A DNA stretch of 64,000 bases from Dehalococcoidia bacterium (GCA_965262725.1 OZ253555.1:1696001-1760000), one strand, 5' to 3'. Shown: positions 11,239 to 17,402, counted from the stretch's first letter. Notes: a model not told the origin generated them from the sequence alone. Program-made: numbers and translations.

Positions 11239-11730
11239 ATGCCGTACCATTCCGCCCTGCACGACAGCGACAACGTTGACCACGCCGAGCACGGTTGCCC
11301 GCGCGCGGCCCGCATTCTAGACCGTTGCGACTGTGAGGAGCGGCGCCCGGCGGCGCGGTGCAGTTGGTGCTACACCGGTCGTATAGAGCGCGACCCCGCC
11401 CAATTGGATCATGAACGGCACTACGCCACCCTTGCGATGGAGCCTCCTGCGTGGCGCGCGAGCGTTGTATGCGGCTCCGGCGCCGATGTGGACGTCAGCC
11501 AGGCTCTGGGGGCGTTCACCGGGAGCATTGAGGAGATCGACGGGGCGGTGCGCTTCGACCCAGCGAAGGGCCCGCTCTTCATCGAGTGCTCCAAGCACGG
11601 GATGTACCTTGGCTACTGGCGGCTTCTTCCTCGAGCCGGCGGCGCGGCCTTCAAGCCTCTCTCAATCCCTCTTCTGCTGATACCGCTCCGGGACGTGGAG
11701 CACGTCATTCCGCTGTATCAATCTCCCTGA
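11239..11730 (+). CDS. Hypothetical Cys/His-rich protein
   Basis: 163 aa ORF starting 2 nt after the upstream stop; no family recognised. Confidence 0.45.
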   Translation: MPYHSALHDSDNVDHAEHGCPRAARILDRCDCEERRPAARCSWCYTGRIERDPAQLDHERHYATLAMEPPAWRASVVCGSGADVDVSQALGAFTGSIEEIDGAVRFDPAKGPLFIECSKHGMYLGYWRLLPRAGGAAFKPLSIPLLLIPLRDVEHVIPLYQSP

Positions 11731-11883
11731 CCATCAAGCGAGACCAATTGACCCGACCCCCTGAAACGGGACCGCTGTTGATGAGAGTCCTTTGGCCCGC
11801 GAGGGTGGGCGGAGGAGGACATCACGGTGAAACGACGCAGGCATACGGCTGAGCAGATCGTGCGGAAGCTTCCATGAGGGTCG

Positions 11884-12219
11884 TCTGATCCGCAAGGCCG
11901 ACGTGGCGGTCTTCTGCGCCGTCTACCGATCGCGCCTCCCATCCGCAGCCCTGTTGTGGTTGTCGGTACAGATACGAGTGGTGTCGTCGTGTCGTCCCCG
12001 GGAAGTCGTGGTGGCCATGCTTCCATTCGCACTCGTCGAGGGGCCTCTCCGGGCCCGGTGCATGATGGTCAACCTGTCTCCAGGGTGTGGGCGCTGCCAT
12101 CTGAGGGCCGTCCTCGTTGGGACCAGCTTCCGTCGCAGTCGCCCGAACGTCGGCATCCCTCGCATCCTCCGGAGCCCACCGGCCGCCCGGTCGCCTCGCT
12201 CCTCGCATGCTGCCCGCTG
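11884..12219 (-). ncRNA. Putative bridge/seek RNA of the IS1111 element
   Basis: Internal loop with ctgaggg (12101-12107) and cagcttccg (12124-12132) matches both halves of the reconstituted target cggaagCTgaggg; cttccat (12020-12026) matches the donor junction; boundaries approximate. Confidence 0.7.
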
Positions 12220-12838
12220 CTACGCCGCCTCGGCCGCGTGCGCGTGGCGCAACGGCTCGTAGACCTCGCCGCTCTTCCAGAGTGCAAGCATCAGCACCGC
12301 CAGTCGCCTCGCGACCGCGACGACGGCACGCTTCTTCGCATTGCCGGCCCCCGACTCCGCGTACCGCAGCCCCCACCTGCGGAGGTCGCTGTCGGGGCCG
12401 AAGGGGCCCAGGATGTAGTGCGCGGCCTGGTTCAGCACCCGGCGCAGCGCCACGTCCCCTTCCTTCGTGATCCGCAGCTGGGGCTGCCGGTCACCGGAAT
12501 CGCGGCTCCGGGGCACCAGCCCGAGGTAGGGCCCCACCTCCCTGTTCTTCGGGAAGCGGTTCGGGTCCTCGATGGTGAGGACGAAGGTGAGCGAGGTGAT
12601 CGGGCCAACGCCCACGATCTGCTGGAGCACGCCGGTCTCGGGGTAGCGCTCGCACATCGCGGCGAGTTGCTTGTCGGCCTGGCGTATCTCCCCGGTCAGG
12701 TGCTCGATCTGGTGGAGCATCGGCAGCAACGCCGGGCCCAGCTGTCGATCGCCAGGGTCATTGATCCACGCGTCGCCACGGTCATTAGACCACCCGGGAC
12801 GCCGGTAGGCGGCTTGATATCAGTGAGCGTCTAGCGCG

Positions 12839-13612
12839 TCAATCACCTCCCGTCTGCGCCTCGAGCAGGGCGCGGTGCGGCGAGAGCCGCTGGCGGTAGC
12901 TATCGCCCTCGATCACGATCTGGTAGCTGGCGTTGGCGAGCCGGTCGAGGGCGCTGTTGCCGAGGATCGGGTCGTCGAAGAGACCCAGCCATTCCTCCAC
13001 GGCGCGGTTCGAGGTGATGACGAAGCTGGAGCTGCGGTGGCGCCCGATGACCAGCTCGTAGAGGTCGATGGACTGCTGCGCGCTGAGGCGATGGAGCCCG
13101 AGGTCGTCGAGGATGAGCAGGTCGGGCGCGAGGAAGCTTCGGAAGACCTTCTCGGCCGAGTGGTCGACGCGGGCCTGCGCCATCTCGCGGAAGTAGTGGT
13201 CGGCCGGGGCGAAGCGCACGGTGCGTCCGGAGCGGACGGCTGAGTAGCCGAGCGCCTGGGCCAGGAAGCTCTTGCCGACGCCGACGGGGCCGACGAGCAG
13301 GACGTGCTCGCGGCGATCGAGGAAGTGCAGCGAGAAGGCGGCGTCGAGCAGGCGGCGGTCGAGCCGGATGGCGGCCGCCCAGTCGAAGTCCTCGAGGCGG
13401 CAGAGCTGCTCGAAGCCGGCCTGGCGCAGGCGCAGCTCCAACCGCCCGTGGTCGCGGCGGCTCACCTCGTCGACGAGCAGGATCTGCAGGAAGTCCGCGT
13501 AGTCGAGGTGGTCGCGCCGCGCGAGGGCGATGCGCTCGGGCAGGGTGTCGAGCATACGGCCGAGCTTGAGGCGCTTGAGCAGCGGACGGAGGTCTGAGGT
13601 GGTGGCGGTCAT
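12839..13612 (-). CDS. istB: IS21 helper ATPase IstB
   Basis: GPVGVGKS Walker A, LLILDDLG, ITSN and ALDRL; ATGA overlap with istA. Confidence 0.95.
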   Translation of the reverse strand: MTATTSDLRPLLKRLKLGRMLDTLPERIALARRDHLDYADFLQILLVDEVSRRDHGRLELRLRQAGFEQLCRLEDFDWAAAIRLDRRLLDAAFSLHFLDRREHVLLVGPVGVGKSFLAQALGYSAVRSGRTVRFAPADHYFREMAQARVDHSAEKVFRSFLAPDLLILDDLGLHRLSAQQSIDLYELVIGRHRSSSFVITSNRAVEEWLGLFDDPILGNSALDRLANASYQIVIEGDSYRQRLSPHRALLEAQTGGD

Positions 13613-15189
13613 CGTGGTGCTCCTGTCGGGGTCTGCGTGCGGGACTGTGCGAAGACGGAGCCCGAGTGGGCGAAGCGCCCCGGAGGTGGCGGCAGCTCGG
13701 GCTGGTCTGGGGTGCTCTCCTGGTCGAGGGCCTCGACGAGGATGCGCTCGAGGCGGCGCACGTCGATGAGGTCGACCTCGAGCGCGCGGCGGCAGGCGGC
13801 GTCGAGGCGGTCGGGGGAGTAGCGCTCGGCGAGCCGGAGGAGCTTGTGGCCCTGCCGCAGCTTCGCCCAGGGCAGGGAGCCCTCGAAGAGACGCTCGGCG
13901 TAGGCGCCCACGGCCTCCCCCAGCTCGGCGGCGCGGCGCTGTATCCAGTCGGGCGCCCGCCTGGTGTAGGGGGTGAGCTCGGCCGGGTAGTCGTTCGGGT
14001 CGGTGGCCCGGCCGCCCCGGCGCTGGCGCGGGTGGACCTTGATGAGCTGACCGCGGTGGTAGATGCGCACCAGCTTCGAGCCGAGCTGCACCTCGACCTT
14101 CTGGCGGGGCGGGCAGGCCGTGGACGGCACCGAGTACAGCGCGTACTGGCAGGCGATGTGGTGGTCGGGATGGACCGTGGCGGTCCGCCAGTCGGGGACC
14201 TCGTAGGGCTCGCCGTCCCACGGAGCGAGCAGAGGGAGCTCCTCCTCCCGGAAGACCTCGAGCGGCCGGCGGCGGGTCGTGCCGTGGATGCGCTGCCCCG
14301 CCACCTCGAGGCACCAGCTGCGGGCGGCGGAGCGCAGGTCGACGATGTCCCGGAAGTCGCCGCCCTTGAAGAGGCGCTCGCGCACGTAGGGGATGCTGCG
14401 CTCGACGCGCGGCTTGTCGCGGGGATGACGTACGCGCGCCGGGTCGGTGATGAAGCCTCTGTGGCGGGCGTACTCGAGGAAGCCCCGGGTGAGGCGCGGG
14501 TGGAGCGCGTCGGCCCCGGCCACGGCGGCCGGGAAGTTATCGATGACGAGGTAGCGGGGCACGCCCCCGAAGAAGGACCAGGCCTCCTCCAGGCCCTCGA
14601 TCACGGCGTCCAGCGTCTGGCTGGTGGTGGGCCACACAAAGCAGTGGCGTGAGTAGCGCCAGACGACGACCAGCGCCCACACCGCGCGCCGGCGGCCGCT
14701 CTCGGGGTCCCGGATGAAGCCGAGGCGGCCGAAGTCCATCTCCGCCACCTCGCCCGGCGGCCCGTCGTCCATGCGCACGGTCGACGGCAGCCGGTGGCGC
14801 CAGCCGCGGCGCCGGATGAAACGCCGCAGCGTGGTGTAGGAGACCTCGCAGCCTCGTCCGGCGAGGAGCTCCTGGATGCGCGTCAGTTGCAGGCGGTCGG
14901 TCTCAAGCCAGCGCTCGATCTGCTCCGCCCAGGGCGAGAGCAGCTCCTCGCTCGGCGCCTCGACCTGCCGCGGGCCGGAGAGGCTCAGCGTCGCCAGCGC
15001 GGCGAGCTGCTCCTCACTCGGCTCGGGACCGCCCGGCGTGAGGCCGGCCGCCTCGGCCGCCTCGACGTAGCGGCGCACCGTCACGCGCGATAGCCCCGTG
15101 CCGCTGGCGATGCGGCGCTGGCTGAGCCCCGCCTGCCAGCGTCGAATGATCTCCTGGATCTCCACCCCGTGTACCTCCCGGTAGGCCAT
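13609..15189 (-). CDS. istA: IS21 transposase IstA
   Basis: N-terminal HTH, AEMDFG, LVIDN, DKPRVER, RIHGTT and YSVP. Confidence 0.95.
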   Translation of the reverse strand: MAYREVHGVEIQEIIRRWQAGLSQRRIASGTGLSRVTVRRYVEAAEAAGLTPGGPEPSEEQLAALATLSLSGPRQVEAPSEELLSPWAEQIERWLETDRLQLTRIQELLAGRGCEVSYTTLRRFIRRRGWRHRLPSTVRMDDGPPGEVAEMDFGRLGFIRDPESGRRRAVWALVVVWRYSRHCFVWPTTSQTLDAVIEGLEEAWSFFGGVPRYLVIDNFPAAVAGADALHPRLTRGFLEYARHRGFITDPARVRHPRDKPRVERSIPYVRERLFKGGDFRDIVDLRSAARSWCLEVAGQRIHGTTRRRPLEVFREEELPLLAPWDGEPYEVPDWRTATVHPDHHIACQYALYSVPSTACPPRQKVEVQLGSKLVRIYHRGQLIKVHPRQRRGGRATDPNDYPAELTPYTRRAPDWIQRRAAELGEAVGAYAERLFEGSLPWAKLRQGHKLLRLAERYSPDRLDAACRRALEVDLIDVRRLERILVEALDQESTPDQPELPPPPGRFAHSGSVFAQSRTQTPTGAPR

Positions 15190-16258
15190 CGCTGCTCCCT
15201 CCGCTGGGGATGCAGGCGATGGTGGCCGTACCGGCGACCCGGGCGGGCAGGAGTCCCTGACGGGGTGGATCAATGACCCTGGCGAAGTGGATCAATGACC
15301 CTGGCGATCTGGCGATTTCGTGGTCTATAGACCTTGGCGATTCACAGCAGCTCCTCGGGGATGTGCCCGATGACCGCGCGGTGGAAGACCGGCGCCGTGC
15401 AGCTCGGAAGCGCCGCGCCCCACGCCTTCACCGCGCCCCGGACGTGGTTGATCAACATCGTGCGCGCCCGGACCAGCGCCTCGCGGCTGCGGAGCACCTG
15501 GAGGTCCGCCTGCGCCATGGCGCTTCGGTGCCGGATGGGGAAGAGGAGCGCCGGGTCGAATCGGCCGAGCCGTGCGAGGTGCTCGGCATCGGAGCGGTCG
15601 GTCTTGCGCTGGCTGCGCGCGATCAGCCTGACCTGCCTCGGGTTGGCGACGATGACGTCGTGCCCGAGCTCCGAGAGCATCCGGCTCAGCCACGGGGACC
15701 GCGGCCCCACCTCCATCACCACCCGCGCGCCCGTCATCCCGGCGAGCGCCCGCGTGAGCGCCGCGGTCGTGGTGCGGACTCGCTCCTCCCGCACGATCTC
15801 CCCCTCGCCACCGAGGACGCAGAGGTGGCTGTAGCGGTCGCTGACGTCGATGCCGACAGTCACGAGCTCCGCATCCCCCACCTTCCTGCTCTCTGTGACA
15901 TCTGATGTACCCTCTGCCACGGTCGGTCTCCTACCTCTCGGCTCGCCTGAGCCGTTCTCCTGGGCCACCACGTGAGCCCGTGCCTGGAGGGGAAGTATCC
16001 CCTCTGAGGAGGGGACCGACCCTCATGCCATCTGAGGGAGGCGGAGCGGCTGCTCGGCGAAGGGCAGACGATCGCCGAGGCGGCGAAGCAGGTCGAGATC
16101 TCGGAGCAGACCTACCACCGCTGGCGCAACCAGTACGGCGGGATGAAGGCCGACGACGCCAGGCGGCTGCGCGAGCTGGAGCGCGAGAACGCGCGTCTGA
16201 AGCGGATCGTCGCCGACAAGGAACTCGAGATCGACGCGCTCAAGGAGATCGCGCGGGG

Positions 16259-17098
16259 AAATTGGTAAGCCCGTCGCGCCGGCGTGAGGCGGTCTGCATG
16301 TTGCAGGACCGCCTCGAGTTGTCGGAACGACGGGCATGCCGGGTCACCGGCCAGCACCGCTCCACGCAGCGCCGCCTCCTGGCACGCGGCCGCGGCGACG
16401 ACGCGCTGCGGACGGAGTTGCACGCCTTCTCGCGTGGCCATTCCCGCTGGGGGTACCGCCGGGCCTGGGCGACCTTGTGCGAGGAGGGCTGGGGTGTGAA
16501 TCGCAAGCGGGTGCAACGCGTCCCGGTGAAACGACGCAAGCGTCAGCGCCTGGGGGACTCGGCAGTGCCCGCCGTGCGGCTGCGGGCTGAGCGGCCGAAC
16601 CACGTCTGGGCGCTGGACTTCCAGTTCGACCAGACCGCGGACGGGCGGGTCCTGAAGCTGCTCAACATCGTTGACGAGCACACACGGGAGGCGCTGGCGA
16701 TCGTGGCCGCCAGGAGCATCACCGCCGACGCTACCGCCGCCACGCTCGACCGGATCGTCGCCGGGCGCGGAACGGCGCCTGGGTACATCCGGTGTGACAA
16801 CGGTCCCGAGCTCACGGCCAACGCCCTGCGCGACTGGTGCCGGTTCTCCGGCACGGGCAGCAGCTACATCGAGCCCGGTGCGCCGTGGGAGAACCCGTAC
16901 GTGGAGTCGTTCAACGGCCGGTTGCGCGATGAGTTCCTGGCCGTCGAGCAGTTCGACAGCTTGCTCGAGGCGCAGGTGCTGATCGAGGACTGGCGGATCG
17001 AGTACAACACGAAGCGCCCGCACAGCAGCCTCGGCTGGCTCGCCCCGGCTGCCTACGCCGAGCAACGCAGGGCGGAACAACTGGTTGGACTCTCATAA
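16259..17098 (+). CDS. IS3 OrfB DDE transposase (frameshift-coupled; small internal deletion likely)
   Basis: WGYRR, WALDF, IRCDNGPE, PGAPWENPYVESFNG and RPHSSLG; the usual LWREEGLR-like segment after KRVQR is absent. Confidence 0.88.
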   Translation, partial: KLVSPSRRREAVCMLQDRLELSERRACRVTGQHRSTQRRLLARGRGDDALRTELHAFSRGHSRWGYRRAWATLCEEGWGVNRKRVQRVPVKRRKRQRLGDSAVPAVRLRAERPNHVWALDFQFDQTADGRVLKLLNIVDEHTREALAIVAARSITADATAATLDRIVAGRGTAPGYIRCDNGPELTANALRDWCRFSGTGSSYIEPGAPWENPYVESFNGRLRDEFLAVEQFDSLLEAQVLIEDWRIEYNTKRPHSSLGWLAPAAYAEQRRAEQLVGLS

Positions 17099-17402
17099 GC
17101 GGTGGTCTCGCGAAGGGGGTCCGGTCACACCCGCAGCCCGCGCCGACTCGAACTCCTCCAGCGCCTGCCTCCGCTGCTCGATACGCAGGACCGCGTCGCG
17201 AGCGCGCTGCTCCTGCTCCGCTGCGCTCAGCCCGCGTCCGTCGCGGTGTCGATACGAGCGAGCGGGATAGCTGGTGGTGCACCGGGACCAGGATGTGCAA
17301 GCGGGCGCGGCAACGAAGAAGTCGGCCCGACCAGCGGGGCCGTCGGCGGTCAGGGCGTGCGGTATCCTGCTGCGTCGGATCGCATCGAGCGAAGGAGAAC
17401 CT

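Follow-up and report, generated by a model that had tools for sequence, protein, structure and literature searches.

An IS1111-type element in a Dehalococcoidia genome with predicted RNA guides matching its IS3 insertion site, and relatives of varied guides located mostly in other mobile elements

The use of seekRNA or bridge RNA guides by insertion sequences of the IS1111 and IS110 groups has been in print since 2024. In Siddiquee et al. 2024 (PMC11187229), the IS1111 group is characterised by a GL-P----S(T)G motif in the recombinase and is described as having subterminal inverted repeats of about 11-13 bp with asymmetric extensions (7+3 or 6+3), junction promoters, and a seekRNA in which the complement of the top strand lies 5' of the complement of the bottom strand; both natural reprogramming and members aimed at other mobile DNA (Tn21 ends, attC) are already on record. 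For IS621, 2-nt handshake guides are reported in Hiraizumi et al. 2024 (PMC11208158). The locus studied here lies in a stretch of 64,000 nucleotides (nt), referred to as the window, from Dehalococcoidia bacterium GCA_965262725.1 (OZ253555.1:1696001-1760000), whose genome (G000) is one contig of 3.67 Mb; coordinates are those of the window unless a locus or contig is named with them. It carries a three-level nest, in which an IS3-family element is interrupted at codon 14 of orfA by an IS1111-type element, the recombinase gene of which is in turn interrupted by an IS21 element. The reading that we favour, with a probability of about 0.9, is that the IS1111-type element acts like the described seekRNA/bridge-RNA elements, that its own guides are set to the IS3 orfA site it occupies, and that the guides of its clade have been rewritten often, mostly toward mobile elements.

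The two outer levels of the nest comprise the following features:
11749..17127, plus strand: IS3-family element, host of the nest, with left end TGACCCGACC... and right end ...GGTCA
11827 onward and again from 16034, plus strand: IS3 orfA, with orfB ending at 17098
11869..16033, minus strand: IS1111-type element, with the core CT (AG on its own strand) at both junctions
11873..11883: subterminal inverted repeat catgagggtcg, whose partner cgaccctcatg lies at 16017..16027, at the recombinase-proximal end

The reading frame of orfA is interrupted after ...gtgcggaagCT (core CT at 11869-11870) and continues at 16034 with gagggaggcggag. With a slash marking the junction here and below, the two junctions read cggaagCT/tccatgagggtcg and cgaccctcatgccatCT/gaggg (core CT at 16032-16033), and the target site within orfA is cggaag-CT-gaggg. 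Public contigs from other samples (two from X4, one from X20) run from 11868 directly into 16032, leaving out 4163 nt with an ambiguity of 2 nt, and thereby confirm the boundaries and the shared CT core. The X20 contig, which spans 11749-11868 joined to 16032-16412, also supports the extent of the IS3 element, which without the nested elements measures about 1216 bp and encodes an orfB with the Pfam domains rve, rve_3 and HTH_21. Neither the junctions nor the contigs contain a target duplication; the dinucleotide CT is common to element and target. The IS1111-type element is 4163 nt long with its nested IS21, and intact relatives are 1556 bp. Its subterminal repeat is perfect over 11 bp; counted as 10 bp, with the core given to one side, it leaves extensions of 7 and 3.

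The non-coding region 3' of the recombinase gene is predicted to encode a structured RNA with the following parts:
12010..12159, minus strand: predicted bridge/seek RNA core, about 150 nt (covariance model R1, 163.7 bits)
12135..12143, minus strand: 5' strand GGCGACUGC of the outer stem around the target loop, without variation among 36 distinct relatives
12124..12132, minus strand: 5' target guide, RNA (A)CGGAAGCU, with the same sequence as the IS3 coding strand cggaagCT, so that pairing would be with the opposite strand
12110..12123, minus strand: inner hairpin of the target loop, GUCC-CAACGA-GGAC (gtcctcgttgggac), kept in all relatives
12101..12107, minus strand: 3' target guide, RNA CCCUCAG, the reverse complement of CTgaggg
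12090..12100, minus strand: AUG directly after the core, in the position of the IS621 handshake guide, then the outer-stem 3' strand GCAGCGCC
12063..12068, minus strand: 5' donor guide, RNA CCAUCA, matching the left end gCCATCt (UCAUCA where the left end is gTCATCt)
12020..12026, minus strand: 3' donor guide, RNA AUGGAAG, identical to the right end cATGGAAG (replaced by AUAGAAG in every case of a cATAGAAG end)

On the element strand, this region reads ...GGGCGACUGCG-ACGGAAGCU-GGUCC-CAACGA-GGACG-GCCCUCAG-AUG-GCAGCGCCC..., so that the loop segments ACGGAAGCU and CCCUCAG flank the hairpin and each reads one strand of the IS3 orfA site. The guide order is that of IS1111 seekRNAs, with the two segments overlapping at the insertion point. 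In a 3.67-Mb genome, the chance expectation per 350 nt is 0.008 for the 9-mer and 0.037 for the 7-mer, and about 3e-4 for both jointly; with expectations this low, the presence of the two on either side of one hairpin is not attributable to chance. An earlier reading of the window, made from the sequence only, had pointed out the motifs ctgc (12094-12097), gcag (12135-12138), ctgaggg (12101-12107), cagcttccg (12124-12132), cttccat (12020-12026) and tgccatct (12095-12102), all of which were confirmed at these positions, and had proposed a bridge/seek-type RNA with two target guides on opposite strands around a CT core. This proposal is upheld by the covariation between guides and targets described below.

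The first comparison is available within the same genome, in which model R1, built from 11 sequences, finds five copies: the window copy and four uninterrupted relatives of 1556 bp that are 92-96% identical to it. In the relatives, the scaffold is kept and the two loop segments are exchanged as blocks (ACGGAAG to GAACCCC, CCCTC to GAACA), giving the guides GAACCCCCU and GAACAAG. All four are inserted in gcgccccCT/tgttcgcc (gcgccccCTtgttcgcc), with right flank ggggcg and left flank gaaca on the element strand, and this site is matched by their guides, with CCCC+CU to one side of the core and GAACA+AG to the other. The site corresponds to approximately codons 17-23 of the reverse transcriptase (RT) open reading frame (ORF) of a 1.94-kb group II intron (RF02005, 170 bits; RF00029, 39.9 bits, just below the cut-off of 40), which is present in 14 near-identical copies, 10 empty and four occupied. 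The window copy and the four relatives also differ, respectively, in the right end (CATGGAAG and CATAGAAG), the 3' donor guide (AUGGAAG and AUAGAAG), the left end (GCCATCT and GTCATCT) and the 5' donor guide (CCAUCA and UCAUCA). In addition, a public contig of sample X1 covering 11883-12451 differs from the window mainly within 12098-12133, the guide segments.

The same pattern extends across related genomes. A protein-seeded scan with one genome per species yielded 23 loci, of which 21 are in Dehalococcoidia metagenome-assembled genomes and two in Planctomycetota (48% identity); their non-coding ends align on one scaffold with two hypervariable target segments, and recombinases about 90% identical occupy unrelated sites. 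Model R1 matched 98 copies in 9 of the 99 genomes of the same bacterial family, and the 90 regions examined correspond to 92 of the 93 matches other than this genome's own, one partial match in G081 being omitted. Among the 96 matches in the model alignment, 36 sequences are distinct, and these carry about 25 different guide pairs. Guides and flanks were taken by script and scored over 6+6 flank positions for 26 distinct guide/target combinations with both junctions, after rows lacking a recognisable AG left junction or both flanks (the 25-copy subfamily of G080, whose left end escaped the extraction pattern, and the intron-bearing copies) had been dropped. At least 8 of 12 positions were identical in 22 of the 26 own pairs (mean 9.27), against 12 of 630 non-own pairs (mean 4.22, maximum 8); an earlier hand-copied set had given 11 of 15 own against 4 of 200 non-own. 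It could be argued that the loop/flank matches arise by chance or from the alignment and that the protein alone picks the target, given the short guides (6-9 nt), a genome rich in G+C and the poor fit of some elements. Against this stand the joint expectation of about 3e-4 in 350 nt, the block substitutions located exactly at the guide segments with 92-96% of the rest kept, the difference between own and non-own pairs, and the unrelated sites of recombinases about 90% identical, which together make that explanation hardly credible.

Some half-guides are common to several subfamilies: guide 1 ACAGGCUGCU occurs both with guide 2 CCGCAU (IS3 orfB) and with CUUUUC (the 25-copy subfamily), and CGGCAG and CGAAGC, both guide 2 sequences, are each combined with two distinct guide 1 sequences. 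Such sharing points to retargeting that proceeds half by half, or else to recombination between elements.

The donor guides vary together with the ends of the element. The 3' donor guide agrees with the right end in every row that has a full-length guide and a right end, which supports the earlier assignment of cttccat (12020-12026) as a donor match: AUGGAAG or AUAGAAG always agrees with CATGGAAG or CATAGAAG. The companion assignment of tgccatct (12095-12102) is better revised, as this segment consists of the core, 3 nt and the outer stem, and the covariation with the left end lies at 12063-12068; the 5' donor guide found there keeps one mismatch in L015 and in the 70%-identity group. In the model alignment of relatives, the 3 nt after the target-loop core do not consistently track the left end, and the handshake role of AUG is a positional analogy only. 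Several elements are followed by partial repeats, in tandem, of their right end and non-coding region, namely L026/L061 (2877-3611, five right ends), L022/L081 (2768-2941, three), L028/L079 (2864-2922, two) and L076 (two); L026 carries a second full copy of the RNA gene. The junctions of these repeats coincide with internal sites similar either to the target or to the donor end (in the latter case the DNA encoding the 3' donor guide), and they recall the one-sided or half-match reactions described in two 2026 preprints.

The fold predicted by RNAalifold from 11 sequences comprises a closing helix GCCG with YGGC (GCCG with UGGC in the window copy), a target loop whose 8-pair outer stem encloses an inner hairpin of 4 bp and both guides as single strands, a small CCUG/CAGG hairpin, and a donor region with a GCACC and GGUGC stem between the two donor guides. 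Over 36 distinct sequences, 97.6% of cells are paired. Compensatory change was found in 5 of 31 pairs, a number reached by no shuffle in a control that ignores relatedness; the predicted fold rests mainly on conservation. The RNA signal sits in the 150-nt core and in the covariation, not in overall stability.

In the proposed mechanism, the 3' non-coding end would specify a structured RNA of about 150 nt, to be made and bound by the recombinase. In its target loop, the 5' guide CGGAAG+CU and the 3' guide CCCUC+AG would pair with opposite target strands around the shared CT/AG core, and in the donor loop CCAUC and AUGGAAG would recognise the joined ends of the excised circle. The DEDD/Ser recombinase would then swap strands at the core, which would account for the lack of a target duplication; the insertion in orfA breaks the IS3 transposase gene. 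By extension, recombination in the whole clade would be RNA-guided.

The nature of the targets was examined with Pfam on stop-free flank segments of at least 60-70 amino acids within 900 nt of the junction, at representative loci of 20 guide sets. By our reading, the insertion point lies inside an ORF with a transposase or RT domain in 10 of the 20, as follows:
IS3 orfA (window copy)
IS3 orfB, at a YNTKRPH/S motif (L026/L061)
group II intron RT (the four relatives in this genome)
IS21 istA (L020/L039; L048)
IS21 istB (L073)
IS630-like helix-turn-helix transposases (L015; L022/L081)
DDE_Tnp_1_4 transposase (L027/L028)
IS5-like DUF772/DDE_Tnp_1 gene (L083)

In a further 9 of the 20 guide sets, the insertion lies a few hundred nt from such a domain: four are directly 5' of another DEDD_Tnp_IS110 gene, two are about 100-150 nt 3' of DDE_Tnp_1_6 ORFs, one is 5' of an IS630-like ORF, and two poorly matching cases are beside IS21 genes. 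For the one other set (L017/L045), the flanks gave no transposase or RT domain match. Insertions in host genes also occur, in a gene with a vWA domain (L021/L041) and in a gene with a PPC domain (L019/L040), and in these the best match of the guides is an IS21 site. In G080, one subfamily is present in at least 25 copies (L096-L120) at a short, variable, repeated site, ...tttttc-AG-cagcctgcta/g... (the slash here denoting a or g); some of these copies lie about 150 nt 3' of IS5-like transposase ORFs and others beside the host genes NDK and GNAT. The idea put forward in the sequence-only reading, of an RNA-guided parasite of IS3 elements, stands in part: for the clade, most sites are in other mobile elements, and for the guides of the window copy, itself dead, one occupied IS3 copy is known.

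The IS3 site itself differs slightly from its relatives. IS3 relatives with 95-97% identity are present in 20 of the 99 family genomes, and intact ones read gtgcg(g/c)aagCT/gcg(g/c)gagg. The window IS3 has a synonymous AGG (gaggg) where the others have CGG; the 3' guide matches the window variant exactly and the consensus with one mismatch. An IS3 variant lacking about 90 bp, from just inside the left end to the exact position of the CT core (...ccgctgtt/gcgggagg), was observed in two genomes (L014/L160, at G000 C1:2413941-2414213, and L143 in G004). It could be the footprint of an IS1111-mediated deletion.

Several results weigh against the favoured reading. As regards the IS3 site, the exact empty 13-mer cggaagCTgaggg has no match in this genome, and in the 99 family genomes it has 9 matches, none within IS3, against 17 for the reversed control; IS3 relatives carry 1-2 mismatches to the guides, and neither the genome nor the 99 family genomes contain another copy with IS3-orfA guides, the sole copy being dead, so that this guide set is known from a single inactivated insertion. 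As regards the covariation, four of the 26 combinations fit poorly, L053, L075 and L081 scoring below 8 (L081 with a one-base offset in guide 1) and L040 just 8, L035/L038 occupies a site that fits the guides of another subfamily, and neither the copies of one genome nor those of kin genomes count as independent. As regards the RNA, most stems never vary, so the structural covariation is thin (5/31 pairs); the fold of the whole 354-nt non-coding end is no more stable than shuffles (z = 0.38); an Rfam 15 scan of 11500-16400 (4.9 kb, E up to 10) gave no bridge-RNA family at gathering score; and the contigs of the sole RNA-library run (X20) cover 12151-12402 and not 12010-12150, which is uninformative on expression. 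As regards the targets, landing in mobile elements is less improbable here than in an ordinary genome because 19% of the DNA is repeated, and retention bias favours insertions into mobile elements. The 13-mer counts were set aside as evidence in either direction. Public runs were represented as contigs, and no run contained half of the sampled words. The Rfam matches obtained (whalefall-1 at 25.9 vs 37 bits, mir-9416 and Pyrobac-1) are all below threshold and at chance level. The L035/L038 element (G079) is an internally deleted IS1111 that has lost about 510 bp of the recombinase gene, and its site is in IS21 istA, as matched by the guides of L020/L039 (G077); it was possibly mobilised in trans or placed by recombination between copies.

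On the favoured reading, the targeting of mobile elements may be a product of selection and not of tolerance alone. A different account makes it a by-product of survivorship and copy-number opportunity rather than an adaptation, in which guides drift or recombine, insertions in host genes are purged and those in multi-copy, dispensable sites persist. The genome is unusually repeat-rich for its group, repeats of at least 300 bp and at least 85% identity making up 19.1% of its 3.67 Mb, and high-copy subfamilies have multi-copy sites, as in G080, where some of the copies are beside NDK and GNAT. The partially matched insertions in the vWA-domain and PPC-domain genes fit the same account, and the targeting of REP, attC and Tn21 ends by known IS1111 elements, according to PMC11187229, follows a similar logic of safe, repeated sites. 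However, in no fewer than 10 separate guide sets the match is to conserved coding positions in genes for a transposase or an RT, which indicates that the sites were specified and did not persist through tolerance alone. This by-product account concerns why the sites were taken and not how, and so is not contradicted by the matches; we regard it as a serious possibility, though on the weaker side of even odds. Another conceivable explanation is that the clade was recruited by the host as a domesticated, RNA-guided defence against mobile elements, as its targets are overwhelmingly other mobile elements and insertion breaks transposase or RT genes. Yet full transposon anatomy (ends, donor guides, multiple copies) is retained, occurrence is patchy (9 of the 99 family genomes), the elements themselves have been disrupted, by IS21 and by a group II intron, host genes are also struck, and no fixed single-copy locus was seen, all of which renders a defence role very improbable.

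The favoured reading, in which the guides specify sites mostly in other mobile elements, has a counterpart in the left ends of the IS1111 copies themselves. An odd left junction, ...gttagccgggcg/CTCT-GGCATGAGGG, was found in 8 of 96 copies (L044, L046, L047, L049-L052, L091), which come from three genomes and represent three guide sets. The DNA 5' of this junction is a group II intron (L128 93-2021, G081; RF02005, 165.6 bits) with a 576-amino-acid ORF carrying an RVT_1 domain, and its RT shares 82% identity with that of the intron targeted by the four relatives in this genome. The intron is on the opposite strand, precisely between CATGCC and ATCT of the IS1111 left end. Its 3' junction was considered at three loci: in L128, ATCT is followed by the IS21 flank predicted by that copy's own IS1111 guide; in L130, ATCT is restored and the flank misfits the element's guide; and in L129, the 3' end lies beyond the examined stretch. 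The ATCT and predicted flank of L128 imply that the insertion sequence was inserted first and that the intron entered its end afterwards. The native 5' exon of the intron in this genome (ccctgatcc) resembles the IS1111 end (ccctcatgcc); comparison by eye of intron and IS1111 end gave no secure assignment of EBS/IBS pairing. As the intron splits the sequence read by the 5' donor guide, its insertion may immobilise the IS1111 element. A tentative and rather doubtful interpretation is that of a reciprocal contest between two kinds of RNA-guided element, in which the IS1111 clade would rewrite its guides into mobile-element genes and the same intron family would home into the IS1111 donor site, immobilising the insertion sequence; the CATGTC left end with its UCAUC guide would be a possible escape, and half-guide sharing a route for retargeting.

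Bacterial group II introns home into other mobile DNA, for instance RmInt1 in ISRm2011-2. Like introns of the RmInt1 type, the one found in the IS1111 left end is a retroelement guided by RNA that occupies a single, exact position within a different mobile element; here, however, an IS1111 subfamily in turn targets the same intron family, which makes the relation two-way.

The other features of the nest are these:
15342..15971, minus strand: N-terminal half of the recombinase, PF01548 (DEDD_Tnp_IS110), E 1.2e-20, 74.3 bits against a cut-off of 29
12220..12743, minus strand: C-terminal half of the recombinase, PF02371 (Transposase_20), E 6.3e-19, 68.6 bits against a cut-off of 21.3, on 12220-12729
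12739..15347, minus strand: IS21-family element that splits the recombinase gene, 2609 nt including a 5-nt duplication
13609-15273 and 12839-13612, minus strand: IS21 istA and istB, respectively (Pfam rve, Mu-transpos_C_2, IstB_IS21)
11890..11895, minus strand: TTGCGG, which in the circle would lie 17 nt ahead of GAAGAT formed across the joined ends; candidate junction promoter

The N-terminal half is DEDD/RuvC-like, with GIDVS, MEVG and KTDRSDA seen in its translation, and the C-terminal translation contains GLVPRSRDSG, the GL-P----SG motif. The recombinase of an intact relative aligns to the ISCro4 and IS621 transposase chains, with E values of 2e-9 to 4e-10 for the C-terminal domain. About 349 nt of non-coding sequence follow the recombinase gene (between the stop at 12220 and the element end at 11871), and about 60 nt precede the longest ORF (15972-16031). 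Contigs of X1 and X2 (one each) join 12738 to 15348, skipping 2609 nt with an ambiguity of at most 5 nt, and the alignment of the split IS1111 copy to intact relatives is interrupted at the same position. The ends of the IS21 element alone match about 25 places in the genome. Removal of this IS21, which had been suggested as a way to a working recombinase, is needless, as the four uninterrupted relatives in the same genome allow tests without touching the broken copy. Of 17 aligned relatives, 16 keep TTGCGG and its spacing, L022 having TTGCAG instead; the public contigs aligned to the locus contain no circle junction. At 15995-16043 (plus strand), the sub-threshold whalefall-1 match covers a hairpin, CCCCTC-TGAG-GAGGGG, inside the recombinase-proximal IS1111 end, which is kept in the relatives and is probably part of the end or leader of the element rather than a member of the whalefall-1 family.

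By every sequence-level trait of the family and of a seekRNA or bridge RNA, the element falls in the IS1111 group. The IS110-group arrangement (IS621-type), a left-end RNA with very short repeats, was not found, as the predicted RNA is located 3' of the gene and the repeats measure 11 bp. In common with ISEc11, ISKpn4, ISPst6 and ISPa11, as presented in PMC11187229, the element has a DEDD recombinase with GL-P----SG, subterminal repeats, a long 3' non-coding region, a top-strand match 5' of the bottom-strand match, and natural reprogramming among relatives. It differs from them in its uncultured Dehalococcoidia host, with an RNA predicted here from sequence, in having transposon and group II intron coding sequences as targets instead of REP, attC or a short linear site, and in the presence of about 25 guide sets on one scaffold within one bacterial family. 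Compared with the IS621/IS110 bridge RNA, in Durrant et al. 2024 (PMC11208160) and Hiraizumi et al. 2024 (PMC11208158), it shares target and donor loops with two opposite-strand guides each, the CT core, the 2-3 nt after the 3' guide in the position of the handshake guide, and a detectably similar C-terminal domain. In contrast to IS621, the RNA is in the right (3') end, the guide order is reversed, the subterminal repeats are long, and in the predicted fold the donor loop belongs to a three-way junction, not to a simple internal loop.

In the open-access papers and preprints covered (subscription journals and supplements being outside this scope), no IS1111 clade aimed at transposase or RT genes was described, nor a two-way relation of this kind with a group II intron. 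The mechanism is known; what is new is the breadth, with one clade and about 25 guide sets directed mostly at mobile-element genes, together with the two-way relation with the intron. IS1111-type bridge RNAs have been less studied than that of IS621, and the natural series of about 25 guide pairs on a near-invariant 150-nt scaffold, with natural targets and several off-target insertions, offers data for pairing rules and tolerances. Within this one family of uncultured Dehalococcoidia, most members of the clade reside in other mobile elements, and some host a group II intron in their turn, a nested, two-way parasitism that could shape the limits of insertion-sequence load in genomes so rich in repeats. 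Like known IS1111 members with a specific target inside another mobile element, the elements of this clade interrupt a specific target; the targets of those members are the non-coding ends or recombination sites of one element type, whereas here they belong to many types and are often in transposase or RT genes.

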